49,175 nt of DNA. Source: Escherichia phage P818. Under the pieces are notes generated by a model that was not told the origin of the DNA, made no database searches, and worked only from the letters and a program-made list of their open reading frames with translations. Positions 9,610 through 45,074 of the stretch are shown here, piece after piece. Position numbers and translations under genes: made by a program. How positions within the stretch are numbered: position 1 is the first letter of the stretch; each line of letters begins with the position of its first letter. The stretch lies in sequence record ON062054.1. The stretch is one strand, 5' to 3'.

Positions 9610-10352
9610 TGGTTTTTCCTGTCAAGTGATGCGATCGCACAGCCGCCGAAATCTAATTCATTTTTGTCGCCGAATCGTAATTTGCAGGCAGTTACAGTTC
9701 CTGCGCATACGTCCTGTGACGGATCAGTTACTGGATTGTTGTCTTTGTCAAACATCCGGCTTCCATTGTAACCGCAACCGCGTCCGCTTCGATACCATCC
9801 ACGCTGTGCCCAAAAACAAACACTCTGAGTAACTCGCGGTGGAATCATGATTCCGTCCATGTCGTATGGTGAAGTCAGATCAAATCGCGCAACGTTCTGA
9901 TCCACAAAGTTCGGCCTCTCAACGTAGTAAACGTATTTTCTGAAGTCACCGGGGGAAACATCGCCGTTGCTGCCGAGCATTTCTCGTGATGTTATCCAGA
10001 TAGTCACCTTAGCCTGCATCATGCCATTGTAGGATCGGATAAGGGCCGATACTCTGCTGTCAAGGTTGGATAAGGTTAACTGTGGTTTTCCTGCCTTTCC
10101 GTTACCGTTTAGGTCAATGCCTGATATGCCGAAAGGACGAGCGCCATATTCATTTCCCTGAAAGGTGATTGTTTTTGGCTGAAGGCTACCGCCTGGCTGT
10201 GTGGCTGCGAGAATCTCCTCCGGCGTAAACTGGATGTTTTCGTTGTGCATCCTATATACTTGCGCTCCAAACTTTGTGCCATCTATGTCAATCAGCGTTA
10301 TAATCTCGCCAGGAAAAAGCCCCTGCAAGACGTTCTCAAACTTAGGTGTCAT
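9606..10352 (-). CDS. Minor tail protein (lambda L-like)
   Basis: 248 aa; C-terminal Cys cluster consistent with gpL Fe-S site; synteny. Confidence 0.65.
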   Translation of the reverse strand: MTPKFENVLQGLFPGEIITLIDIDGTKFGAQVYRMHNENIQFTPEEILAATQPGGSLQPKTITFQGNEYGARPFGISGIDLNGNGKAGKPQLTLSNLDSRVSALIRSYNGMMQAKVTIWITSREMLGSNGDVSPGDFRKYVYYVERPNFVDQNVARFDLTSPYDMDGIMIPPRVTQSVCFWAQRGWYRSGRGCGYNGSRMFDKDNNPVTDPSQDVCAGTVTACKLRFGDKNELDFGGCAIASLDRKNQ

Positions 10353-10396
10353 GGGATTACCTCCAATAAAAAAGCCCCCCGTTAGGAGGCTTTATT

Positions 10397-10744
10397 CTAC
10401 ACCGCTGTGAAGGCTTCTACAATGGTGCATTTTACGACAAGAAGGCCTCGACCGATTGGCTGAGTATTCAGCGTGTCAGGCTTCAATAGGAAGACGCCGA
10501 TCTTGTCCTCCGGTGGGGTAAAGGCAAAGGCTTTCAGTCTGTGCGATCGCAAAAATTCGCGCACTTCTTTCCAGTCCTTGCCAACGTAACTGATTGCGTA
10601 CTCTCGTCGCTCAGTGTTGTAGCCAGACGATGCAACCTGGCGGAATCCATTACCAAACTGCACCTGCCTGTCATTGTTGGTGACGGTCATCACGCCGCCA
10701 CCATCCTGAACCTGTACGCACCACTTGAAAACGTCTAGGGCCAT
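10397..10744 (-). CDS. Minor tail protein (lambda M-like)
   Basis: 115 aa directly downstream of the tape measure gene. Confidence 0.5.
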   Translation of the reverse strand: MALDVFKWCVQVQDGGGVMTVTNNDRQVQFGNGFRQVASSGYNTERREYAISYVGKDWKEVREFLRSHRLKAFAFTPPEDKIGVFLLKPDTLNTQPIGRGLLVVKCTIVEAFTAV

Positions 10745-10747
10745 TTA

Positions 10748-13654
10748 TTACGCTCCTGCTTTTCCGTTGATGTAATTGTAAACTTCGCCACCCTGGGAGC
10801 ATGATTCCTGAATCATTTGCTTGAAAATCATTTTCACGCCTTGCTCCATACCCTTCGGATCGCTACCGTTATTGATGCTAACAGGGATGCTACCAATTGT
10901 CACGCCGCCAGCCATGATTGCACCGCCACCGCCGCCACCGCTTGAAGTTCCACCAACCATCCCACCATTCGCATAACCGCGCATCATTCGATAAAGGTTA
11001 TCGACGCCAATTCGCTTGGTAGCTTCCTTGGTCATGACAAACTCACCTTTATGAACCGTGCCCGCTGGCTCATACTTACCGCCATCTCCGGTATAGCCGC
11101 CAGTGGCGAACCAACCTGAGTTGGCGAAGGAGAAACCCTTGCCGCCGCCGCCCATCATGCCTGACAGTGAGTTAAAGATTACCATCTGCGTGATCATCTT
11201 AATGATCTGGCTGATAATGCTCTTTGCAAAGTCAGCAAAGTTTGCTTGTCCAGTCATCAAAAACTCAGTCATCATATCTGACAAACCGTTCAGGGAGTTA
11301 GTTGCGATGTCATATACGTTTCCGTACATATCCGTTGCGCTATCTCCGTAGTCCGCAAATGCTTTCTGCGCACCAGCCAGCCAATCTCCACGAAGCTGAT
11401 CCTCTTGTGCATAATACTCCTTCTGCTTATCAAGCATATTATTCAGCGCCTGGTCATCCTCCCCGCCGCCTTTAGCCATGTAATCAGCTTTAATTCTCTC
11501 AAGCTGAAGCTGCCTTTCAGCTTCACGAGTACCCATGGACCTTGTCTCGTTCAGAGCCTTGCTGGCTGCGTCCATCTGCATGATGAACTTCATTGAATCA
11601 TCATTCAGCTTGTTTATTCTCTCCTGAGCAACAATCTGATCACCAAGTTCAGCCTTTTCCTTAGCTAGAGAGAGAACCTTCTGCTGACTGGCGAGCAATG
11701 CCTTTTCCTCATTTGTTAGCTTGCGCTTAGCCTGAGCATCCTGCAGGATTGCAATCTGTGCTTCTGTTGACCACAGTGCCTTCCTCTGACTTGAGATCTT
11801 GTCGTTAATAGACGTATGCTCTTGCAATGTTTTAAGCTGGGCCTTGAGAACGTAAAGCTCTTTATCAAGCTGCTCTGTTGCTCCTTTCGTTATCCTATCT
11901 TTCTTATTCCTCTTCCTGTTTTCCTCTTCAATCTTTTTAGCTTCTTCCGCTATTGCATCTTTTGTTTCCTTGCTGTATTGCTTCTCCATATCGCGTCGGT
12001 TCTTGAGAGCGTTGATGTAACCCATTTCGCCCTTTTCTACTCGCGCGTTAATCACGTCCAGATCTTTTGCTAATCCTTCATACGTCTCCTTTGAGCCTTT
12101 AGCAATCGACTCTTGCTGCGAGAGAATATCCTTACCGAAATCATCCAGCCCAGGAAGGCTCTGCGTTGCCTTTATTGCCGAAGCAATAAAGTTGGAGATG
12201 TATTCGTCACCTTTGGCGAGAATCATTTTAACCTGAATTACCGTTCCGCTAACCACGTCAATTATTAGGTTAAGAGCGCCAAGAGTGTGATCACCAACCC
12301 AACCCCAGGCATCGGATGCCCACTTCTTAATGTCATTCCACATCTTTTCAAGCGGCGTTGCTGTATCTGCAATCTTGCTCATTCTCTCCTCCATGACATC
12401 TGCAAATATCTTAGTTGCCTCCGTCACGGCTTCGGTTTCGCCTTTTGTTTTGACAATCCCGTTAATATAAGTCAGTTGGCCTTTTTCAAGGAAGTTGTAC
12501 TGCTCATTCAGCTTCGCCAGGCCTTTCACCGGATCATCTGCAATCTTGTCGAAGTCCTTAATAATATCGCTTGATGCTCGGCCTGTAGCGGCTGACCATT
12601 CAGCGGTGGTGCGGGTAATATTCCTGATTTGGTCTTGGGTATATTTCCCACTCTTAGCAAGTTCAGTAGCAATATCACGAACAGTTCCGATGGTGGCGTT
12701 ACCAGTTTCTGCAATCTTGGTAGCGATCCGGTCGAGTTCTGCGGCGCTAGATGCAGCGAATCCACCAGTTTCAATCAAGGCGTTTTTCATGTCACTGATA
12801 TTACGGTAGGAGTCGTAACCAGCTTTAGCCAGGCCAGCAAGTGCGATACCCATCGCAGTCATTCCAACAGTAACCGGATTCAGGTACGAAAGCAAAACCT
12901 TGAACGTGTTACCAACGCCGCCGAATGAGTCCTTGATCTGCCCACCTTGCTGAACTGCAACTAGCCATACTGGCATACCTGAGGCGAGCGATGTAACCAC
13001 GTCCGTGATCTGAGCCGGAAGCATTCGCATGGCGTTCTTGTACTCACCAGCGGAAAGGCCAGCCGCATTTGTCGCTACAGTCTGCTTGTTCATCGCTGCG
13101 ATTAAAGGCGCGGCCTGAGTCGAAACGCCAAGCTGTGCCGCCTTCAATTCGAGGAGTTCAGCCCTGGTCATTGTCGCAGCGTTAGCTTGTTCTTGCAGTG
13201 ATTTAAGGAACCTGTCAGCGTCCTTTGTTGCCGCCTCTTTGGCTTTTGAGTTAGCCATAGCCGCACGGCCTTCTTCGGTCAGCGCCATCTTGGATCGGTT
13301 AAGCGCATTGATCTGAGTTTCAATCATGCTTGACAGATTGAAGAACTCGGCGTCTGGAACTAGGCCTTTACTCCAGAGGTTATCCAGGTCAACGCTCGCC
13401 TTCTGCAACTGGCGCATTTTTCCGATTGTAGGATCAATGGCTTTCTCTACGTCGGCAAATTCTTTCTTCTGGCGCTTAACCTCGTTGTTGAACTCTTTCA
13501 TCTTCTGCTTTGCTACTTGCTCAGCATCAATGAAATTGTCAAAGCTCTTTCCGGCTGTGTTGTTCGCTCTGGATAAGTCATCCAGAGATTTAACCGCCGC
13601 ATCAACCTGGGATACGTCAACCCCAAGCGATAGCCCTGCAAATTTATCTGTCAT
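10748..13654 (-). CDS. Tail tape measure protein
   Basis: 968 aa; long coiled-coil regions, internal hydrophobic segment, Gly-rich C-terminus. Confidence 0.9.
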
Positions 13655-26818: not shown

Positions 26819-26874
26819 CTTTCTTTCCTCTCGTTTGGTATGAGCTAACTATAACAAAACCCGCCGGGGCGGGT

Positions 26875-26894
26875 TTAGCAATTCGTGCTATTTA
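26875..26894 (-). promoter_or_regulatory. Dyad motif copy 5
   Basis: Minus-sense TAA-ATAGCACGAATTGCTAAA, then terminator-like hairpin CCCGCCCCGGCGGG plus T-run in the 22-bp spacer, then TATAGT. Confidence 0.6.
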
Positions 26895-27509
26895 CCATGG
26901 AATATCATCGGCCCATTCGTCAATCTGAGGCCGCAGGCCGCAGGAAATAGCCACCGCCAAAACACCACCTTCAACATCACCATTTACCAGATGCACATCA
27001 TGCTCGTTATATTTCTTGTAATCAGGAAAATGAGATTCCTTGATGCGGATGTAATTACGGCTATCGCCTGCGAAGGTCTTGCCATCCATAAATAGGCGCA
27101 CAACTGTAACGTCGTGACCATCTTCCACTAGCTGAATAACCTCATCAGGGAAACCGCCATCAGTGCAAACAAAGCTAAATCCATCGTCACACAGTCGGAT
27201 ATGTTCACTCATCAGCTTACCGAACTGCTGATTGCCAAAGAGTGGCTTAACTACCGTCTCGCTAATCCAGATCATGAACTCACGGCAGGTCTTGCCACCG
27301 AGAAAGTCATGAGGCATCTCTTTCTGATCGCGGTCGTCGTATGCAGTGATGAACTTTGAGAAAGCTCTTGCACCAAGGATGGATGCTGCAATCTCAAACA
27401 TCGGACGCTTGAAGCTGGTCGGGATGCAATTGTAATCTGCTGCCAGTGCATTGCCGATCGTGTCTTTACCTACGCCAGCAGGGCCGTTGAGAATGATAAT
27501 CTTTGACAT
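26892..27509 (-). CDS. P-loop kinase (polynucleotide or nucleotide kinase-like)
   Basis: 205 aa from MSKIIILNGPAGVGKDT (Walker A) with AGGAAT RBS; C-terminus ends ADDIPW. Confidence 0.55.
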   Translation of the reverse strand: MSKIIILNGPAGVGKDTIGNALAADYNCIPTSFKRPMFEIAASILGARAFSKFITAYDDRDQKEMPHDFLGGKTCREFMIWISETVVKPLFGNQQFGKLMSEHIRLCDDGFSFVCTDGGFPDEVIQLVEDGHDVTVVRLFMDGKTFAGDSRNYIRIKESHFPDYKKYNEHDVHLVNGDVEGGVLAVAISCGLRPQIDEWADDIPW

Positions 27510-27558
27510 TTTGATATTCCTGAGTAGTGGGCGCAATGTGCGCCCGTTAAGTTTAGTT

Positions 27559-28176
27559 TTATTTACCGCTTACGAGATTGCATTTTTTGCACTGGCGAAC
27601 ACCAAACGGAGGTAGCGGATCGCTAAATTCGTGCTCGCAAACTTTCTCTACGCCGTGAGACTTAAGGCCGGAGTGCACGTTGTCGCCATAGTCACACACC
27701 TGATAGGTTGTGATGCCCAGGCTTCGGAAGTGCGCAATAACATTCGGACTATCATCCCACGCTGCGGTGATGCGGTGCAATCCAATGTATCGTAAAAACT
27801 CTTCCTTGATGATCGTATCCTTGCGGTTATCATCAGCATGGCGCATGACCAGAACGTTATATTTAGCGCCAGCATCATACAGCCATTGCGTTGATTCCTC
27901 AACAACAGCATCAGATCGACCAGTGAGTACGATGATGAAAGCGCCGGAAGCGAATAGGCTATTCATTACGTCAATCGTTTCCTGGAATGGCTGATCGAAC
28001 TTGCTCAACGAGTTAAATTCAAGCCATGACTCAGTGAGGTGCAAATCCTTGGTCGGCAGCTTATGCAGGCGGTGAGTCCCGTCCGACAGAGTACCATCGA
28101 AATCAAATATGTAAACTTTCTTGTTTACCGCTTCCGTTTGAAGGTGATGCTTAATCATGGTGTAAAGCTGATTCAT
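27559..28176 (-). CDS. HAD-superfamily phosphatase
   Basis: 205 aa; DxDGT motif (FDFDGTL) near the N-terminus; C-terminal Cys/His cluster. Confidence 0.65.
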   Translation of the reverse strand: MNQLYTMIKHHLQTEAVNKKVYIFDFDGTLSDGTHRLHKLPTKDLHLTESWLEFNSLSKFDQPFQETIDVMNSLFASGAFIIVLTGRSDAVVEESTQWLYDAGAKYNVLVMRHADDNRKDTIIKEEFLRYIGLHRITAAWDDSPNVIAHFRSLGITTYQVCDYGDNVHSGLKSHGVEKVCEHEFSDPLPPFGVRQCKKCNLVSGK

Positions 28177-30272: not shown

Positions 30273-30292
30273 GTTTAGCAATTCGTGCTATT
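30273..30292 (-). promoter_or_regulatory. Dyad motif copy 9
   Basis: Minus-sense AATAGCACGAATTGCTAAAC overlapping stop; 22 bp then TATGAT then TACCCTATCAACAACGAAG box. Confidence 0.6.
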
Positions 30293-33663: not shown

Positions 33664-34229
33664 ATAGAAAAAGAAGTCCAGACGGAAAATTTTCTGGTGA
33701 TCCGCTACTACCTGGAGGTTTTCATAATTGCAACTCATGCGGAATTAAAAAGGAGGCTGACGATAAAAACTTTAGAACAATAAATAAAGGAAAAACATGC
33801 GAGAGCCTAAGCAAAACTTGCAGAAAATGCGAGTATCAAAAAGGAAAGGATAAACACGCAAGGAACATGAAAAACCCTGAATTTGCAGATGCTAGAAGGG
33901 AAAGGTGCAGGAACTGGAGGAGCAACAACAGAAGTAAGGTGGCGCTTAAAAATTATCAAGCAATAGATAAAAAGAAAGGACTTACATGCACCATGACAAT
34001 TGATGATGTTGAGGAGTTGCAGTCAATGCCATGCTACTATTGCGGAGATACGGATCGGGTTGGTGCTGACAGGATTGACAACTCACTTGCTCACACGCGC
34101 AAAAACTGCCTTCCATGTTGCCCTGATTGTAATATCTGTAGGAGTAACACTTTTTCAGTTGATGAGATGATGGTGATAGGCAAAGCGATAAGACTCGTAA
34201 AGAAATCAAGAAATAGCACGAATTGCTAA
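33660..34229 (+). CDS. HNH-type endonuclease / zinc-finger protein
   Basis: 189 aa; multiple CxxC pairs and RIDNSLAHTRKNCLPCCPDCN motif. Confidence 0.6.
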   Translation: MNRKRSPDGKFSGDPLLPGGFHNCNSCGIKKEADDKNFRTINKGKTCESLSKTCRKCEYQKGKDKHARNMKNPEFADARRERCRNWRSNNRSKVALKNYQAIDKKKGLTCTMTIDDVEELQSMPCYYCGDTDRVGADRIDNSLAHTRKNCLPCCPDCNICRSNTFSVDEMMVIGKAIRLVKKSRNSTNC

Positions 34230-34230
34230 A
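34211..34230 (+). promoter_or_regulatory. Dyad motif copy 12
   Basis: AAATAGCACGAATTGCTAAA (translated as NSTNC-stop); terminator hairpin in 22-bp spacer; TATATT; CATCCCATCGAAACGAA box. Confidence 0.6.
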
Positions 34231-36669: not shown

Positions 36670-36820
36670 ATGCAGCTCTGAGAATGCTATCAGTGAGGAT
36701 GGTCTTAACCAAGCCCTTCTTTCAATGCTTAACTCATCCATGCGCGCAGGGCGACGTGATGAGCATACATTGTGCAATAATGAAGGTGAATTGTTGCTAC
36801 TGGTGCAAAGATTTGGATAA
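36623..36820 (+). CDS. Hypothetical small protein (uncertain)
   Basis: 65 aa ORF overlapping the 3' end of the previous gene in another frame; weak RBS. Confidence 0.25.
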   Translation: MESYLESQVVIDAIIRCSSENAISEDGLNQALLSMLNSSMRAGRRDEHTLCNNEGELLLLVQRFG

Positions 36821-36853
36821 AAAAAGGGAGCCTTTCGGCTCCTTTTATTTTTT
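36820..36853. terminator. Bidirectional intrinsic terminator
   Basis: GGGAGCCTTTCGGCTCC hairpin with A-run upstream and T-run downstream. Confidence 0.65.
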
Positions 36854-37990: not shown

Positions 37991-38016
37991 AAAAAAAGGG
38001 AGCCTAAAGGCTCCCC
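37991..38016 (-). terminator. Intrinsic terminator upstream of lysis cassette
   Basis: Minus-sense GGGGAGCCTTTAGGCTCCC followed by TTTTTTT. Confidence 0.6.
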
Positions 38017-38042: not shown

Positions 38043-38216
38043 CTAGTCAGCGATAATAAATTCAACCAGCGCACCATCAATAGGCGCAAAAATCCACGTC
38101 ATATCGTCGCCGTAAATCTTGTAGTTACCGTCACCTTGATACTCGGCGCTGTAAGGATTGTTAACAGTGAAAGGAAGGGTTTTAGATGTGTTCTTAACGC
38201 AAAATAATTTAACCAT
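38043..38216 (-). CDS. Hypothetical small protein (57 aa)
   Basis: Not in the ORF track; AGAGGA RBS; directly downstream of motif copy 13. Confidence 0.4.
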   Translation of the reverse strand: MVKLFCVKNTSKTLPFTVNNPYSAEYQGDGNYKIYGDDMTWIFAPIDGALVEFIIAD

Positions 38217-38267
38217 GATTGAATCCTCTGTAAGTGAGATATGAATATAGCGCCATATAGGCGCTAT

Positions 38268-38289
38268 GTTTTAACAAAAAGTGCTATTT
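38268..38289 (-). promoter_or_regulatory. Dyad motif copy 13
   Basis: Minus-sense TAA-ATAGCACTTTTTGTTAAAAC; hairpin AGCGCC...GGCGCT in 22-bp spacer; TATATT. Confidence 0.6.
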
Positions 38290-39418
38290 ACATACCAGGG
38301 CGATAAATGTGTCGACCAACCTCTCCGAACTCCTTGTGGTAAACAATTGCAGCCGCTTGGCGGTATGATCGCCACCCTCCGCGAGCGGCATATGCATCCT
38401 TGCTAGCCAGCGCTGGGTGAACCTCGTCAATCCCAAGAGTGCACTCTGTAACAGTTGCATGATGGAAATGGCCGGAGTGGCAGTAAACAAACTCACATTC
38501 ACCAAAGTCTTTGCGGTAGTCGGTCGCCATTGCTGCGAGTCGACCCTCAGCTTTCTTCATCGTGTGACCGTGCGTGTAACCAAGTAGTGTTGAACCAAAT
38601 CTTGTTTTGTGCATGATTGCCGGACTGGTATCAACAAACACTCGACTCTCGTCTTCATAAAATGCAGCCATTGCCGCGCGAAGCCAAATCATACCACTTT
38701 GGTCATGATTTCCCTCTATAATCTGAATCTCGACATTTTTATGCTTTTTAAGCATCTTCTCTACTGCACCACGAATTGAGCGAATCGCAACATAAACTAA
38801 CTTAGCATATCGGCTATCCTGATCAAGGCAGTGTCCGCTTGCTGGAGTTACCGCCTCCAACCCATCAGAGTGGAGGAAGTCTCCACCAACTAAAATCACG
38901 GCTTTCTCTGAGGCTGGTGATACAGAGATTGCGTGGTCAAAATATGACCCCATTAATTTCTCTGCCGTTTTAGTGTCATAATTCTCACCAGATTCATGGC
39001 GATGTGCCATCATGCCGATATGGATATCGAAAATAGGGTAAAGAGTCATTAATTCAGACTTGACCTCATTGCCTGAGTGGATTACCACATCTGCCTTCGG
39101 CAACTCCGAACAAAAAGCCTCACGCGCCTGTTCCATCAGAACCTCAAGGCGCTCATTATCAATTGAGGTCTTAACCCACCGGATCTTCTCGTTACCTTCC
39201 GCATCAATCATGGTTGACGTGCCTTTTACAGCGAATCCATCAGGAACATATTTAGCAACAGCTTTGTTACCGTGTCCGTGACCTTTCTTGGCCAGGTTGC
39301 TTGAGCGTTGCTCAACAGTTCTAATGTTCATCCCATATTCCTGGGCGATCTGACGCAGTGTTTTACCAGCTTCGCGCTCGGCAATGAATTGTTCGTCGCT
39401 AATTTTCTTAATTGACAT
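38288..39418 (-). CDS. Metallophosphoesterase (protein phosphatase-like) with N-terminal HTH
   Basis: 376 aa; N-terminal sigma-70-region-4-like HTH; calcineurin-like motifs GDFLHSDG, GNHD, GHTHGH, GHFH. Confidence 0.7.
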   Translation of the reverse strand: MSIKKISDEQFIAEREAGKTLRQIAQEYGMNIRTVEQRSSNLAKKGHGHGNKAVAKYVPDGFAVKGTSTMIDAEGNEKIRWVKTSIDNERLEVLMEQAREAFCSELPKADVVIHSGNEVKSELMTLYPIFDIHIGMMAHRHESGENYDTKTAEKLMGSYFDHAISVSPASEKAVILVGGDFLHSDGLEAVTPASGHCLDQDSRYAKLVYVAIRSIRGAVEKMLKKHKNVEIQIIEGNHDQSGMIWLRAAMAAFYEDESRVFVDTSPAIMHKTRFGSTLLGYTHGHTMKKAEGRLAAMATDYRKDFGECEFVYCHSGHFHHATVTECTLGIDEVHPALASKDAYAARGGWRSYRQAAAIVYHKEFGEVGRHIYRPGM

Positions 39419-39421
39419 CTT

Positions 39422-39907
39422 TTATTCTCCGTGATTCTTGTGAAATTTAAATTTTCTTTGAAATTGCATTCTACACAATTTAGCTTCCTCTATCGAGCCA
39501 AAGTAACCAAGGTGCATTAACTTTCCATCTACCTTTATCCTGGCGACATACTTTGATAGAGGTTTATGCCATGAAACACCAGTAACTCCGGTTGAGTTGT
39601 CAGATCGCATAGACTGGTTTCTTCCATTCTCCGTCCTTGTAACAAGTCTCAAATTCGATATGTTATTGTTGCTCCTGTCATGGTCTATGTGGTCTATCTC
39701 CATCCCTTCAGGTATATCTCCGTTATGGAGATACCAAACGACAATATGAACCCTGTAATTTTTTTTGTTAAACATCATTTGCCAGTATCCAGTTACTTTA
39801 CTGACGCAACCGCACTTACTGCCAACTTTTATCTTCTTGCTTTTTGATCTCTTCCAGACCAAATGAAGATCATCATCATACTCAACAAAATCAATAAGCT
39901 CTTTCAC
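39422..39907 (-). CDS. HNH endonuclease with AP2-like domain (copy 2)
   Basis: 161 aa; EIDHIDHDRSNNNISNLRLVTRTENGRN motif; paralog of copies 1 and 3. Confidence 0.8.
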   Translation of the reverse strand: MKELIDFVEYDDDLHLVWKRSKSKKIKVGSKCGCVSKVTGYWQMMFNKKNYRVHIVVWYLHNGDIPEGMEIDHIDHDRSNNNISNLRLVTRTENGRNQSMRSDNSTGVTGVSWHKPLSKYVARIKVDGKLMHLGYFGSIEEAKLCRMQFQRKFKFHKNHGE

Positions 39908-40702: not shown

Positions 40703-40757
40703 GATGATTCCTCGTCTCGTTGGTATGAAAGAAGTATACCCGCGCGGTGGCGGGTAT

Positions 40758-40777
40758 GTTTAGCAATTCGTGCTATT
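40758..40777 (-). promoter_or_regulatory. Dyad motif copy 14
   Basis: Minus-sense TAA-TAGCACGAATTGCTAAAC; hairpin CCCGCCACCGCGCGGG in 22-bp spacer; TATACT. Confidence 0.6.
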
Positions 40778-41012
40778 ACGCAAAATCTTCGGGGCAAGCA
40801 AGCATATAGTCTTCAAGGTCTTTCCGTATTGCACGGCTCCAGCTATTAAGTGGCTTATCTCTAATCTCTTCAAATGACATATCCAGATCTGAGAACTCCC
40901 AAGCGTCACCATTAAACCCCGCTTTAGTTAGCTCCTTGCAGACGATCGCGCGGAATAAAAGATACTGACCATTGTGGTTTAGATTAATTTTCATACCGCT
41001 CATTTTAAACAC
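40776..41012 (-). CDS. Hypothetical small protein
   Basis: 78 aa; 8-nt overlap with methylase gene. Confidence 0.4.
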   Translation of the reverse strand: MFKMSGMKINLNHNGQYLLFRAIVCKELTKAGFNGDAWEFSDLDMSFEEIRDKPLNSWSRAIRKDLEDYMLACPEDFA

Positions 41013-41733
41013 TCCGTTTACGTGGTTTCTTACGGCTTACGCCAGGGCAAATATCAGCGACGCTAACATATGTAGTCTTCTGCGTCTCGCCTTCTTTCAG
41101 TTTTCGCATTACAAAAATAACAGAGCCTTTATTATTACCATCGACAGGCTTTCCGGTCAGGCCTGATATGAATGCCAGCCTTCCGGTTCGGCAGTATTCC
41201 TGCTGGTCAATTTCTGTTATCTCCGCCTCAATCCAGATGATTTCAGCCGCGTTGCGTCTGGCTTCTGCAAACCACGCCGTTGAGTTATCACCAGGAAGCA
41301 ACATATCAATCTGATTGTTGTGTTCCATCTGCTCAATCGCTTTCTTCACGAAAGGATCTGGATGTGAGTATGGCGGGTTAAGCCATATGTGCTTATTGCT
41401 ACCCCAACAAATTTTGAGACAGTTCACTTGCTCGCTGTAGAACTTTTCGCAAACAGCATTGTTAGCGCTGGCGGCGGCGTCAATGTCATACTTCCCATAA
41501 CGCGACTCCATCCATGAGATCACTTCTCTGTCAGTGGCCCATAGGTCACGAACTGCGTCAGGCGTCTTGCTTCCGGCGTATCTGTTTCCAGTTACCTGAT
41601 AGAAGGTGTCTGGCTTAACCGCCTGGTAATGACCATTTCCAGGAACAAGCGCATTAGTAACAAAATTTTCACGCTCGATCTGCTCAAAGATAACGAATGC
41701 GTCATGAGTATCCTTGTCGTTTGAGTCGATCAT
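41005..41733 (-). CDS. DNA N6-adenine methyltransferase (phage Dam-like)
   Basis: 242 aa; NPPY catalytic motif. Confidence 0.75.
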   Translation of the reverse strand: MIDSNDKDTHDAFVIFEQIERENFVTNALVPGNGHYQAVKPDTFYQVTGNRYAGSKTPDAVRDLWATDREVISWMESRYGKYDIDAAASANNAVCEKFYSEQVNCLKICWGSNKHIWLNPPYSHPDPFVKKAIEQMEHNNQIDMLLPGDNSTAWFAEARRNAAEIIWIEAEITEIDQQEYCRTGRLAFISGLTGKPVDGNNKGSVIFVMRKLKEGETQKTTYVSVADICPGVSRKKPRKRSV

Positions 41734-42071: not shown

Positions 42072-42092
42072 CTTTAGCAATTAGTGCTATTT
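42072..42092 (-). promoter_or_regulatory. Dyad motif copy 15
   Basis: Minus-sense AAATAGCACTAATTGCTAAAG overlapping stop; 22 bp then TATTAT in hairpin; CACCTCATCGAAACGAAG box. Confidence 0.6.
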
Positions 42093-42515
42093 TGAAATCA
42101 TTTCTTTGAATGCTGCAAGAAAACCCTCGCGACCGTAGGCTACAGCTGCGAAGCCTCCTGATTCTCTTACGCTTTTTAGGAAAGACTTCTGTTCATCACT
42201 TACGTGTTTTGCTTGTTTTTTACCAGCTCTCTTTAGTTCTATGGCACCAAACGGATAACTACCGCGCAATGAATCAGGTATTAAAAACATACAGTCTGAT
42301 ACCCCTTTAAGTAGTCCTTTAGCTTGGTCTTTCCTTGCTTGCCCAAATGTTTTCTTGTTCTCGTTAACTACATGAAAGAATACCATTTCTGGATAGTTGT
42401 ATTTAACCCAATCAGAGCAAAAGATTTGTTCGTCATCCTCCTTAGGGCATGACTTAACCGGGCCAGGGTAAAACTCAATGTAATCAACTTTGTCTGTAAT
42501 TTTCATATCAATCAT
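42087..42515 (-). CDS. VRR-NUC domain nuclease
   Basis: 142 aa; PD-(D/E)xK-like D...ELK pattern; 8-nt overlap with helicase gene. Confidence 0.55.
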   Translation of the reverse strand: MIDMKITDKVDYIEFYPGPVKSCPKEDDEQIFCSDWVKYNYPEMVFFHVVNENKKTFGQARKDQAKGLLKGVSDCMFLIPDSLRGSYPFGAIELKRAGKKQAKHVSDEQKSFLKSVRESGGFAAVAYGREGFLAAFKEMISK

Positions 42516-44502
42516 CCATAGTAAAAGATTTGTTTGCGATAATATCTTGAGACTTCTGGTTCTTACGGTGTGTAATCCTTAATGGAGCTCGGAAAAGGTG
42601 AGCATTAGTCATAATCATTTTAGCATTACGCAATCTGCCAATTCTAAAAGCCTCGGTCCTGTTCTCTATGTGAGCCGAGCAAAATGCTTTCCATTTTACA
42701 GAGCAAACTCGATGGTCTGACTCTGGGAAAAACGTCTCATATGCTCGGAACCTATCCCCACTGTGAGCCATGACCTCATATGAAGCAACAATACCTGACT
42801 GGTTCTTTGTTAAACAAATCTTGAAATCATAAACTCGCAACCAGTCCCCTTTGCGGTACATTTTCCCAGATAACTTAGCGTTTGGGTCTATTAGCATCTC
42901 TCCGCAGCATCGACAGTTTTTAGCTGCAACATCATTCTTCTCTCTACAACCTTTCTTAATAATAACTTTTGTCTGTTGGTCCTCTATATCTTCACACAAG
43001 CGAAACTGAAAGAAGTGCTCACAACGCTTCCCGTCAATTACGTTATTGCAACGACGAGCAAAAGGAGAGTTCTCATAACTACAGGCCGGACATATTCTTG
43101 GCCCATCACCGCCTTTGCGTGAAGACTTAAATTTCTGGTCCTGAACTTCCTCTATGATTGGGTCAAAGTATAATTCTGCCATGTCATCAAGGGTGCCAGC
43201 GAAGTCTAGTACCACGTGATCATCCTTAACCATCCCCATCTCCTTGTGCTTCTTCTTTAGGATACGCATACCTCGACCAAGCAACTGAATAAGCAGGGTG
43301 ATGCTTCCAACCTTGCGAAGAATTATTGAAGTATCCCACGGCGGGACGTTCACGCCGGTTGTGAGGCAACCAATCTGAAAGATGAATTTATACTTACCTT
43401 CAGCTGCGTCAGAAAGAATCTCACGACGCTTTTTCTCACCAGTAGAGTCAGTTACTATAGCCCAGGTTACACCCTCAGGAAGCGCCGCGGCTGCTTCCTC
43501 GCAATGCCGCTTGCCTGAGCAAGTTACTAGTGCTGCGTTACGATTTTCCATAAACTTGGCTGCGAACTGCATAATCTTTTGAGTCATGGACTGGTTTTGG
43601 TGAATTTTTTCCTGCATCGCATCCATTTCTTTCTTGCTAAAGTCTTTCACTCCATCACTTCCATCTGGAGCAAACTCGCTAAGGTCATAACCTAAATCGC
43701 CAACCTCGCCGTAAACAGTTGGCACAACAAACCGCAAATCAACCAGGTAATTGGTTGGCACCTGAATCACTGTTTTGCGCCAAAATCCACGGATATTTGG
43801 ATTGCTAACAACGATATGATCATTGTTGCGATACGGGCTACCAGTTAGGCCAAAGATACGAAGCTCTCGACCATACTTCTCACGACAACGACGTTTCATT
43901 TCAGTAATGATTAGCGTGTACTGCGCACGACCCGTGCCAAGCAATCCAGTATTAACGCCTTCCTTAAAAACCTTCTCACCTTTCTTTGTGCTCATTTGCT
44001 CAAATGTTTCTTCGTTCTCCTCGGCTTCAACGATATCCATGTGATCGACCATGTGGCACTCATCTATAGCTATAACGGCAGGAACATAGTCACCAAGCCC
44101 CTTAAATAAGCCGTTAGCCGCAGTTCCTTCGCTAGCAACTATGGTTGGGTAATAAACTGATTTAACGTTAAGGCCAGCGCAATAGACGCTATTACGAATG
44201 CCAAAATTGCGAAGCTCTTCGCTGTCCTGGCTCACGATCTCAGACTGGCGAGATAGCACCATATAAGGAAGCCCTAACTGTTCCATTCTCTTACCGATCA
44301 TGGCGAGAATGATAGTTTTACCAGCAGAAACCGACAGGTCTGCTATGAATGGGCTTTCATACTTCCCGATAGCCTTACCGATCGCATCAAATGTAACGCA
44401 CTGGAAATCGTAAGGAGTTATCTCTCCAAACGAGAATTCTCTCTTAATCTCTTCCATGCGATTTTTATCAAAGTTGGCGACCATTTTTTCAACGGGTAAC
44501 AT
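42508..44502 (-). CDS. SF2 ATP-dependent DNA helicase with C-terminal zinc-ribbon region
   Basis: 664 aa from ATG with AAGGTG RBS (ORF track start is upstream TTG); Walker A GKT, DECH box, Cys-rich C-terminus. Confidence 0.8.
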   Translation of the reverse strand: MLPVEKMVANFDKNRMEEIKREFSFGEITPYDFQCVTFDAIGKAIGKYESPFIADLSVSAGKTIILAMIGKRMEQLGLPYMVLSRQSEIVSQDSEELRNFGIRNSVYCAGLNVKSVYYPTIVASEGTAANGLFKGLGDYVPAVIAIDECHMVDHMDIVEAEENEETFEQMSTKKGEKVFKEGVNTGLLGTGRAQYTLIITEMKRRCREKYGRELRIFGLTGSPYRNNDHIVVSNPNIRGFWRKTVIQVPTNYLVDLRFVVPTVYGEVGDLGYDLSEFAPDGSDGVKDFSKKEMDAMQEKIHQNQSMTQKIMQFAAKFMENRNAALVTCSGKRHCEEAAAALPEGVTWAIVTDSTGEKKRREILSDAAEGKYKFIFQIGCLTTGVNVPPWDTSIILRKVGSITLLIQLLGRGMRILKKKHKEMGMVKDDHVVLDFAGTLDDMAELYFDPIIEEVQDQKFKSSRKGGDGPRICPACSYENSPFARRCNNVIDGKRCEHFFQFRLCEDIEDQQTKVIIKKGCREKNDVAAKNCRCCGEMLIDPNAKLSGKMYRKGDWLRVYDFKICLTKNQSGIVASYEVMAHSGDRFRAYETFFPESDHRVCSVKWKAFCSAHIENRTEAFRIGRLRNAKMIMTNAHLFRAPLRITHRKNQKSQDIIANKSFTMDD

Positions 44503-44521
44503 ATATAAACACCTTATAAAT

Positions 44522-44550
44522 TTGGATTTGTTGCGTTTCATTGGTATAAT
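44522..44550 (+). promoter_or_regulatory. Sigma70-type promoter for the 44601 HTH gene, overlapping the helicase promoter -10
   Basis: TTGGAT-17 bp-TATAAT with TGG extension; leader CCATCGAAACCAA then motif copy 16 then RBS GAGGTG. Confidence 0.5.
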
Positions 44551-44569
44551 AACAGCCATCGAAACCAAT

Positions 44570-44589
44570 GTTTAACAAAAAGTGCTATT
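44570..44589 (-). promoter_or_regulatory. Dyad motif copy 16 (shared by divergent helicase and HTH promoters)
   Basis: Minus-sense AATAGCACTTTTTGTTAAAC; 21 bp then TATTAT (44546-44551), 44-nt leader to helicase ATG; same site lies after the predicted start of the plus-strand promoter. Confidence 0.6.
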
Positions 44590-44600
44590 GAGGTGATAAA

Positions 44601-45074
44601 ATGAATGCAACTGATAAGCGTACTCTTAACGGCAATAACGGAACTATCCGCACAGAAGATAAGAAGCAGCGTAAGCGACCGTCAGGTTACTATGTTCTCA
44701 AGGATGAAGTAAAGGCCGGATTAAGAGCGCGACTTGATATTGTATTTGAGTTCTACGGCAGCAAGGCGAACATGGCTAAGCAATTAAAGGTTACTCGACA
44801 GGCCGTTGAAGAATGGTTTAAGCGTGGAATGATGTCGGCACGCGGCGCTCAACTGGCGCACAACAGATATAAGCGAACTGGCGAAGGGTTCCGCGCTACA
44901 TTCTGCCGCCCTGATCTGCAATTCGACGGGAACGGCAAGCCGCTAACGCTGCGTTGCAAAAAGCGTCACATGCTGCGCGTCGTCACCGAGGCTGAACTAG
45001 CCACTAAGCCTGAATGTCGCTCATGGCGAAAAATTAAAGCAGCAAACGAAGCAGCACGGAAAGCTAAAGAATGA
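44601..45074 (+). CDS. HTH DNA-binding protein (Cro/YdaS-like), candidate regulator
   Basis: 157 aa; HTH-like segment SKANMAKQLKVTRQAVEEWFKRG; basic C-terminal half. Confidence 0.55.
   Translation: MNATDKRTLNGNNGTIRTEDKKQRKRPSGYYVLKDEVKAGLRARLDIVFEFYGSKANMAKQLKVTRQAVEEWFKRGMMSARGAQLAHNRYKRTGEGFRATFCRPDLQFDGNGKPLTLRCKKRHMLRVVTEAELATKPECRSWRKIKAANEAARKAKE

Follow-up and report, generated by a model that had tools for sequence, protein, structure and literature searches.

The 49,175-nucleotide stretch of DNA analysed here (the window, to whose whole length all positions refer) belongs to the coliphage Escherichia phage P818 (sequence record ON062054.1), a T1-like siphophage of the Drexlerviridae, and carries on its minus strand (38288..39418) a gene whose protein product joins a small N-terminal helix-turn-helix (HTH) domain to a metallophosphoesterase (MPE) domain. 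We put at roughly 55% the probability that this product is a stand-alone, HTH-tethered and probably Mn2+-dependent DNA phosphodiesterase, from the nuclease branch of its superfamily that includes Mre11, SbcD, PolD DP1 and PdeM, which acts in phage DNA metabolism. An examination of the letters of this DNA (the original prediction) had described the gene as a metallophosphatase with an appended HTH domain; this proved to have the domains right, in what is an ordinary core gene whose product is not a likely reader of the promoter motif that is repeated across the phage genome.

The open reading frame (ORF) was confirmed at exactly the coordinates, strand and length (376 amino acids) first given for it: it is complete, with an ATG start and a stop codon, and is preceded by a ribosome-binding site, GGAGA (39426..39430, minus strand), that lies within the 3' end of an upstream HNH gene. 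Its coding status is firm, because homologues of 98-99% identity exist, because the protein matches PHROG 704 (‘DNA repair exonuclease’) over its full length (E 3.9e-150, residues 4-376 on profile positions 2-388 of 390), and because a tblastn search of a phage collection located a homologue in 2016 phage records. A sister family, PHROG 284 (‘exonuclease’), is matched more weakly (E 1.4e-12). The 4 kb around the gene display 92-96% identity to Escherichia phages GaoY1-9D, vB_EcoM-p111 and vB_EcoS_ESCO41 (Nouzillyvirus), and the gene is the orthologue of T1 ST16, ESCO41 gp34 and JulesPiccard bas03_0050. The P818 protein is an ordinary member of a known and catalogued family, in which deposited sequences are up to 98.9% identical to it (a hypothetical protein of vB_EcoM-p111), and its gene is an ordinary, already catalogued core gene of the Drexlerviridae, the T1-like phages. 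The PHROG 704 group, which includes T1 ST16 (YP_003929.1), ESCO41 gp34 and proteins of Rtp and of Klebsiella Webervirus phages annotated as ‘DNA repair exonuclease / putative phosphoesterase’, has the same length, the same architecture and the same genomic place, upstream of a holin-endolysin-spanin cassette that may be preceded by an SH3 gene. Nothing essential separates the P818 copy from that group; it has one of at least two HTH alleles and an HNH homing-endonuclease gene directly upstream.

The family extends well beyond the T1-like phages. A profile search of 1.84 billion 50%-identity representatives returned 5210 clusters at E <=1e-3 and 1312 at E <=1e-30, nearly all of them 370-420 amino acids in length and aligned over almost their full extent, and homologues were found in Jerseyvirus, in some Autographiviridae, in Casjensviridae, and in Vibrio, Rhizobium, Campylobacter and N4-like phages; a second tblastn search, with a family representative (P0121) as query, added no homologues to those of the first. 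The names given to these proteins in databases vary, from DNA repair exonuclease, phosphoesterase and oxidoreductase to LpxH, ‘HTH domain-containing protein’ and murein ligase, and the PHROG 704 name is itself a homology-based label.

When the single P818 sequence was compared with Pfam, both halves of the protein fell below threshold (HTH_23, E 0.059; Sigma70_r4, E 0.22; Metallophos, E 0.061), and the domains were therefore tested at the level of the family, using an alignment of 101 diverse relatives that are 30-59% identical to the P818 protein. The catalytic domain (residues 120-376; 38291..39061, minus strand), which is delimited by that conservation, by an AlphaFold2 model and by structural comparisons, contains all five motifs of the calcineurin-like phosphoesterases (DxH, GDxx[DH], GNH[DE], H and GHxH), as originally proposed. 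On the minus strand these are encoded at 39020..39028 (motif I, D131-I-H133), 38864..38884 (motif II, G179-D180-F-L-H183-S-D185, of the GDxxH type found in Mre11 and PdeM), 38702..38713 (motif III, G236-N237-H238-D239), 38564..38572 (motif IV, H283-G-H285) and 38462..38473 (motif V, G316-H317-F-H319). Nine residues (D131, H133, G179, D180, T191, N237, H238, H283 and H319) are invariant across the relatives, and H317, H183, D185, D199, D201 and R203 are kept in at least 90% of them; the five motifs, being present and invariant or conserved to this degree, are therefore under purifying selection. The P818 sequence scores 14.2 bits against the Metallophos model PF00149, for which the gathering cut-off is 21.5, and 23 of the relatives match it at E < 0.01. 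With the five motifs and the beta-sandwich MPE fold both in place, the protein is a divergent member of the calcineurin-like metallophosphoesterase superfamily.

The position of the protein within that superfamily was judged from its fold and from motif II. The AlphaFold2 model used, built with the 101-sequence alignment, has a mean predicted local distance difference test score (pLDDT) of 94.3 and a predicted template modelling score of 0.82; a model built with a shallow alignment of 13 close homologues (pLDDT 62.5) gave fold matches that were close to meaningless, and was set aside. The top structural neighbours of the MPE domain are nucleases: the PolD DP1 proofreading exonuclease (structural-neighbour value 16.1), Mre11 of T. 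maritima (14.7) and SbcD of S. aureus (14.5), with other Mre11/SbcD entries at 12.3-13.3. Small phosphodiesterases (MJ0936, LpxH, YfcE, Rv0805 and GpdQ) lie at 12.1-14.0, PdeM/MPE (PDB 6nvo) at 9.3 and the Ser/Thr phosphatase PP5 at 8.8-9.0, and Foldseek returned the same mix of neighbours for the model (E ~1e-7). Searches of PDB sequences, with the single sequence and with the family profile, gave marginal matches, those of the profile to Mre11/SbcD being weak (E 0.26-0.9); motifs I-III (FDIHIG, GGDFLHSDG and EGNHD) align with those of the Pseudomonas single-stranded DNA (ssDNA) endonuclease MPE/PdeM of PDB 6nvo (vaDvHiG, GDFLHa and GNHD).

A histidine three residues past the aspartate of motif II is the Mre11/PdeM pattern, and the protein therefore falls on the nuclease/phosphodiesterase side of the superfamily, rather than being protein-phosphatase-like as had been suggested at first. 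PPP protein phosphatases carry GDxVDRG at this position; of their signature (GDxHG, GDxVDRG and GNHE) the P818 protein lacks the arginine and has H183 in place of the aspartate, and no PPP family in Pfam or NCBIfam is matched apart from the generic Metallophos model. The sole MPE family of NCBIfam that the relatives match is PdeM (TIGR04123; 23 of the 101, best E 1.6e-5, far below its cut-off), and in other phages the neighbours of the gene are mostly nucleic-acid enzymes. The protein is nevertheless neither a PdeM in the strict sense, the TIGR04123 score being 18.3 bits against a curated cut-off of 150, nor a bona fide Mre11/SbcD: it has a nuclease-type MPE domain with a GDxxH motif II, and no SbcD or Mre11 model is among the NCBIfam families listed for the 101 relatives.

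The N-terminal domain likewise holds up as an HTH, predicted to be of the sigma-region-4 or LuxR/GerE kind, although for the P818 sequence by itself the matches are sub-threshold (E 0.06-0.25). Residues 1-45 (39284..39418, minus strand) form three helices (8-16, 21-27 and 32-44) that are modelled with a pLDDT of 86-95. The N-termini of the relatives match Pfam HTH families, namely HTH_1 in 21 of the 101 (best E 4.3e-6), HTH_8 in 17 (8.7e-6), HTH_50 in 13 (1.2e-5), Sigma70_r4_2 in 11 (1.5e-9) and GerE in six (2.4e-8); the NCBIfam sigma70-ECF model matches 11, and the top PDB match of the family profile is GerE (1fse, E 0.013). The domain is also marked out as a unit by the mosaicism described below. 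It is followed by a Gly/His-rich linker (residues 46-60; 39239..39283, minus strand; pLDDT 75-81), within which lies the recombination breakpoint that divides the HTH module from the remaining protein, and by a family-specific module (39107..39238, minus strand) of a beta-hairpin (residues 62-86) and a helix (88-104), where conservation of G75 and W81 reaches at least 90%. Of the 150 best 50%-identity representatives, 136 match the N-terminal profile; this count is partly circular, as some 100 of the 150 had gone into the profile, and the ones without a match appear for the most part to be truncated fragments. The fusion of HTH and MPE is a hallmark of the family and no peculiarity of P818. 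The general idea that the HTH brings the enzyme to nucleic acid has held up, and a tether to DNA is its most likely role; the particular form first given to that idea, of a protein phosphatase targeted to the nucleoid or to transcription complexes, has not.

In other phages that have the gene, the common denominator of its neighbours is DNA and nucleotide metabolism. In Erwinia phage S2 (Autographiviridae) the order is 5'-3' exonuclease, endonuclease VII, MPE, polynucleotide kinase (PNK), a hypothetical protein and DNA ligase, and in Klebsiella phage KL01 it is exonuclease, endonuclease, MPE, HAD phosphatase and, further on, an ATP-dependent ligase. Webervirus KpV522 has MPE, PNK, a deoxynucleoside monophosphate (dNMP) kinase and a terminator; Campylobacter phage F357 has a Holliday-junction resolvase and, further along, a ligase followed by MPE (a homologue that aligns only from residue 66). 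In an N4-like Roseovarius phage the gene follows those for dCMP deaminase, dATP/dGTP pyrophosphohydrolase and ThyX. In a Lysobacter lambdoid prophage, replication genes and a VRR-NUC gene precede, at some distance, a dGTP/dATP pyrophosphohydrolase gene, the MPE gene, two small ORFs, and the holin, lysozyme and terminase genes; and in Jerseyvirus f18SE the gene occupies a small island within the tail genes, together with an Ant-like protein. In P818 itself it is the last of a block of DNA-metabolism genes that includes helicase, VRR-NUC and Dam.

From these features we infer an enzyme that would act on DNA as a metal-dependent endonuclease, exonuclease or both, held on its substrate through the predicted DNA binding of its small N-terminal HTH, and working without a Rad50/SbcC partner. 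Its task during infection would most likely be to cut or trim DNA, in the breakdown of host DNA for nucleotide salvage and host shut-off, and/or in the processing of ends for repair and for replication that depends on recombination. Analogy with gp46/47 of T4 and D12/D13 of T5 makes a part in phage DNA metabolism plausible.

Comparison with characterised enzymes delineates what would be particular to such a protein. In Mre11/SbcD and PolD DP1 the binuclear site is built from the same five motifs, motif II again being GDxxH; the P818 protein, which is 10-19% identical to them, lacks a capping domain and a Rad50/SbcC partner, and has in their stead a unique beta-hairpin/helix module along with its N-terminal HTH. 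PdeM, the ligase-associated, Mn-dependent ssDNA endonuclease that includes the Pseudomonas MPE, is, as the P818 protein would be, a stand-alone MPE nuclease with no ATPase partner, and the DNA ligase genes that adjoin some phage HTH-MPE homologues recall its ligase association. PdeM is, in contrast, some 200-220 amino acids long and has no HTH; the Lhr helicase/ATP-dependent ligase cluster typical of it is absent from P818, which has no ligase, and a ligase gene is nearby only in distant phage homologues. A functional precedent for what the P818 protein may do is offered by Gp48 of mycobacteriophage A10ZJ24 (a Cluster A MPE), which is a phosphodiesterase and not a monoesterase, breaks down linear, plasmid and genomic DNA in vitro as well as, early in infection, host DNA in vivo, and is needed for M. 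tuberculosis to be infected productively (PMC12287305). Both are phage-encoded stand-alone MPEs, but Gp48 lacks the N-terminal HTH (its motif I aspartate is residue 10), comes from a different host and phage lineage, and was picked up as a homologue by none of our searches; it may serve as a lead to how the P818 protein works, with no claim of family membership.

Several points weigh against the proposed nuclease. The likeness to characterised nucleases is remote, with identities of 10-19% and sequence E-values no better than 1e-5. The P818 protein ends 57 residues past motif V and so has no Mre11 capping domain, and no Rad50/SbcC gene is present among the ORFs or annotations of P818, ESCO41, JulesPiccard and T1. 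Some of the neighbours in other phages are nucleotide-pool enzymes (dATP/dGTP pyrophosphohydrolase, ThyX and dNMP kinase), which would fit a small-molecule substrate as well. Finally, literature searches found no biochemical or genetic study of any HTH-MPE family member: on the family, on host-DNA degradation by T1, on the promoter motif and on anti-defence MPEs, they returned only mentions in genome announcements, a paper on the KanT1 lysis module and the paper on mycobacteriophage Gp48.

The question of whether the HTH reads a particular DNA sequence was raised by a motif, ATAGCAC-N3-TTGYTAAA, that is present in 17 copies in P818 (at two mismatches or fewer, with 0.18 expected), nearly all of them co-oriented with the adjacent genes; examples are located at 26874-26891, 30274-30291, 38270-38287, 40759-40776, 42073-42090 and 44571-44588 on the minus strand, and at 34213-34230 on the plus strand. 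The motif is an imperfect palindrome, TAGCA-N5-TGCTA (duplex form AATAGCACGAATTGCTAAA), and its 12 exact copies are followed about 22 nucleotides downstream by a TATAGT-like -10 element and often then by a CATCGAAACGA leader. That distance exceeds the one in a normal -35/-10 pair, and with its centre at about -41.5 relative to the -10 element the motif suggests an activator site of class II geometry. One copy (ATAGCACGAATTGCTAAA), with a hairpin and a TATACT -10 element (40733..40776, minus strand), probably serves as promoter for the transcription unit whose last gene is the MPE gene; another, with a TATATT -10 element (38241..38287, minus strand), follows and overlaps the MPE stop codon, where it marks the end of that unit and is the probable promoter of a downstream SH3 ORF.

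The MPE protein had been put forward as a second candidate for the factor that binds a motif, presumably this one, a proposal that found no support in comparison among phages. The motif is common to P818, ESCO41, JulesPiccard, slyngel and KpV522, and is missing from the loci fetched for MPE-bearing phages outside the Drexlerviridae. Between P818 and JulesPiccard, residues 1-60 of the MPE protein are 50% identical and residues 61-376 are 96.2% identical, and a protein whose HTH diverges to this extent between phages with the same motif, while the remainder is so well conserved, is a poor candidate for its reader. A dedicated regulator of PHROG 2856 (44601-45074), which is 87% identical between these two phages and conserved in its HTH region, appears from such comparisons to be the likeliest binder. 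The evidence regarding the motif is correlative, and leaves room for the MPE HTH to bind at some other DNA site, as it may.

The same divergence reflects a reassortment, among the Drexlerviridae, between two parts of the protein, its HTH module (residues 1-60) and its catalytic domain (120-376). Measured against P818, two relatives combine a divergent HTH with a nearly identical catalytic domain (52% and 98% in P0009; 53% and 95% in P0066), and two others display the reverse (95% and 72% in P0071; 97% and 65% in P0082). At the DNA level the breakpoint is sharp, with identity to JulesPiccard rising from about 55% to above 82% near codon 60, in the linker. That the HTH is exchanged whole suggests a partner or target of its own. 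Co-conversion accompanying an HNH homing endonuclease was considered as a source of the divergent HTH allele, and was ruled out by ESCO41, which has the same allele and no HNH gene.

The minus-strand block of P818 that contains the gene comprises, in order, a helicase (686 amino acids, 42508-44568), a VRR-NUC-like protein (42087-42515), a 90-residue ORF, a Dam methylase (41005-41733), four small ORFs, an HNH homing endonuclease of PHROG 99 (39422-39907, ending 3 nucleotides upstream of the MPE start codon), HTH-MPE, a stand-alone 57-residue SH3 protein (DUF7244; 38043-38216) and the holin, endolysin and spanin genes. The HNH gene is absent from that place in ESCO41 and JulesPiccard, and in T1 an HNH gene is found downstream of the orthologue instead; a second and related PHROG 99 enzyme is encoded elsewhere in P818 (45106-45654, minus strand). 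The upstream TTG start of the helicase ORF abuts a copy of the promoter motif, and the true start is probably further downstream. At the helicase position of ESCO41 (10146-12740 of the locus), an HNH endonuclease, a double zinc ribbon protein and a hypothetical protein are annotated, so that either the helicase gene is interrupted there or the two phages differ in annotation only. The early region of P818 has a PNK gene (PHROG 415, 27559-28176, minus strand) beside a dNMP kinase gene (PHROG 139, 26892-27536, minus strand), and the same pair lies directly downstream of the MPE gene in KpV522, which suggests a functionally linked mobile cassette.

In the Drexlerviridae the MPE gene stands immediately before the lysis genes: the order exonuclease-holin-endolysin-spanin occurred in 508 of 522 members in a pangenome analysis, which also described the SH3 protein encoded between the MPE and holin genes (PMC13164509). 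In P818 and T1 alike, the series that runs from helicase through VRR-NUC and Dam to MPE is followed by a terminator or a promoter before the lysis genes. This adjacency is probably a module boundary and not an operon, because a motif copy lies over the MPE stop codon, because rho-independent terminators are annotated in T1 and KpV522 right after the MPE gene or its short extension, and because a strong terminator (37997-38016, minus strand) separates the SH3 ORF from the holin gene in P818; on these same grounds, co-transcription of the MPE gene with the lysis cassette, or a functional link between the two, was judged unlikely. A second terminator hairpin (AAAAAGGGAGCC..GGCTCC; 36817-36842), nearly identical to the first, follows the spanin gene, such that the two copies bracket the lysis cassette.

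Among the other functions that an enzyme of this kind might have, hydrolysis of nucleotides or other small molecules (deoxynucleoside tri- or diphosphates, or cyclic and signalling nucleotides), for pool management or anti-defence and with the HTH as a regulatory or scaffolding element, is possible but unlikely. The dATP/dGTP pyrophosphohydrolase, ThyX, dCMP deaminase, dNMP kinase and HAD phosphatase genes that adjoin it in some phages speak for such a substrate, as does the two-enzyme cascade of deoxynucleoside triphosphate dephosphorylation, formed on the defence side by a calcineurin-like enzyme and a HAD phosphatase (bioRxiv 10.64898/2026.01.15.699771). The nuclease character of the top structural neighbours and a GDxxH motif II as in Mre11 and PdeM point the other way; a predicted DNA-binding HTH throughout the family would be hard to explain; and no PADLOC or anti-defence-related model was matched. 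In PADLOC the MPE domain had no match, and the HTH region of one relative gave only weak matches to Csa3/CARF3 models, so that a link between HTH-MPE and a defence system was rejected. The doubtful possibility of an end-healing enzyme, a 2',3'-cyclic phosphodiesterase or 3'-phosphatase that would work with phage PNK and ligase to mend tRNA, RNA or DNA ends cut by host defence nucleases, draws on the proximity of the gene to PNK or HAD phosphatase and DNA ligase genes in two unrelated phage families, on its place directly after the ligase gene in F357, and on the PNK that P818 encodes; bacterial Pnkp, moreover, uses a phosphoesterase domain of the calcineurin type. That arrangement does not hold in P818 and most Drexlerviridae, where PNK is not next to the MPE gene and there is no ligase; the PNK genes already have a HAD-type phosphatase region (PHROG 505 positions 151-290), and an HTH points to duplex DNA and not to RNA ends. 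Least probable of all is the model of the original prediction, a Ser/Thr protein phosphatase resembling that of lambda and recruited by its HTH to the nucleoid or to transcription complexes. Membership in the calcineurin-like superfamily, which NinI and other PPP enzymes share, is consistent with it, as is the HTH, and the MPE gene of lambda, ninI, likewise lies shortly upstream of the lysis genes; the absence of GDxVDRG, with H183 for aspartate and no arginine, and of any specific PPP family match stand against it.

A sequence-specific regulator, in which the HTH would act on the palindromic motif or on another phage site as a switch for middle or late genes, with or without catalysis, is scarcely more probable than that phosphatase. 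Its appeal derives from position. The lysis cassette directly follows the gene in Drexlerviridae, in a metagenomic phage and in the Lysobacter lambdoid prophage (Lysobacter enzymogenes, CP067395.1, 22997-44124), where the homologue (10001-11128 of the locus) occupies the place in which lambdoid phages carry Q and no late regulator could be recognised in the neighbouring ORFs; the MPE stop codon abuts a copy of the motif, and the HTH is exchanged whole, as would be expected of a specificity module. Against these must be set the HTH allele that is 50% different between phages with the same motif, the dedicated and conserved PHROG 2856 regulator, the terminators that stand between the gene and the lysis genes in T1 and KpV522, its placement among DNA enzymes in Autographiviridae and Campylobacter phages (the Campylobacter homologue, aligned from residue 66, may lack the HTH altogether), and an invariant active site, which implies that catalysis is the selected function. 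We assign a small chance to a more far-reaching version, the main reason for which is the exchange of the HTH as a unit: the HTH might be a swappable specificity module that guides the nuclease, or the protein in the role of a regulator, to defined sites on DNA, and the family might then represent an overlooked enzyme-coupled switch or site-directed nuclease in the ‘Q position’, controlling the late transition or the discrimination between host and phage DNA.

The MPE gene is a core gene of a major phage family, with more than 5000 matching clusters at 50% identity, for none of which was an experiment found in the literature. If the product is indeed a nuclease that breaks host DNA or processes phage ends, a gap in the biology of T1 would be filled: degradation of host DNA by T1 is known, but to our knowledge this ORF has not been named as responsible for it. 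That degradation may require the genetically defined T1 gene 2.5, which is not taken here as evidence for the MPE gene. The inconsistent annotations of the family (exonuclease, phosphoesterase, oxidoreductase, LpxH, murein ligase and ‘HTH protein’) would be corrected, and the family would provide a tractable example of a Rad50-independent, HTH-tethered enzyme of the Mre11-like type.

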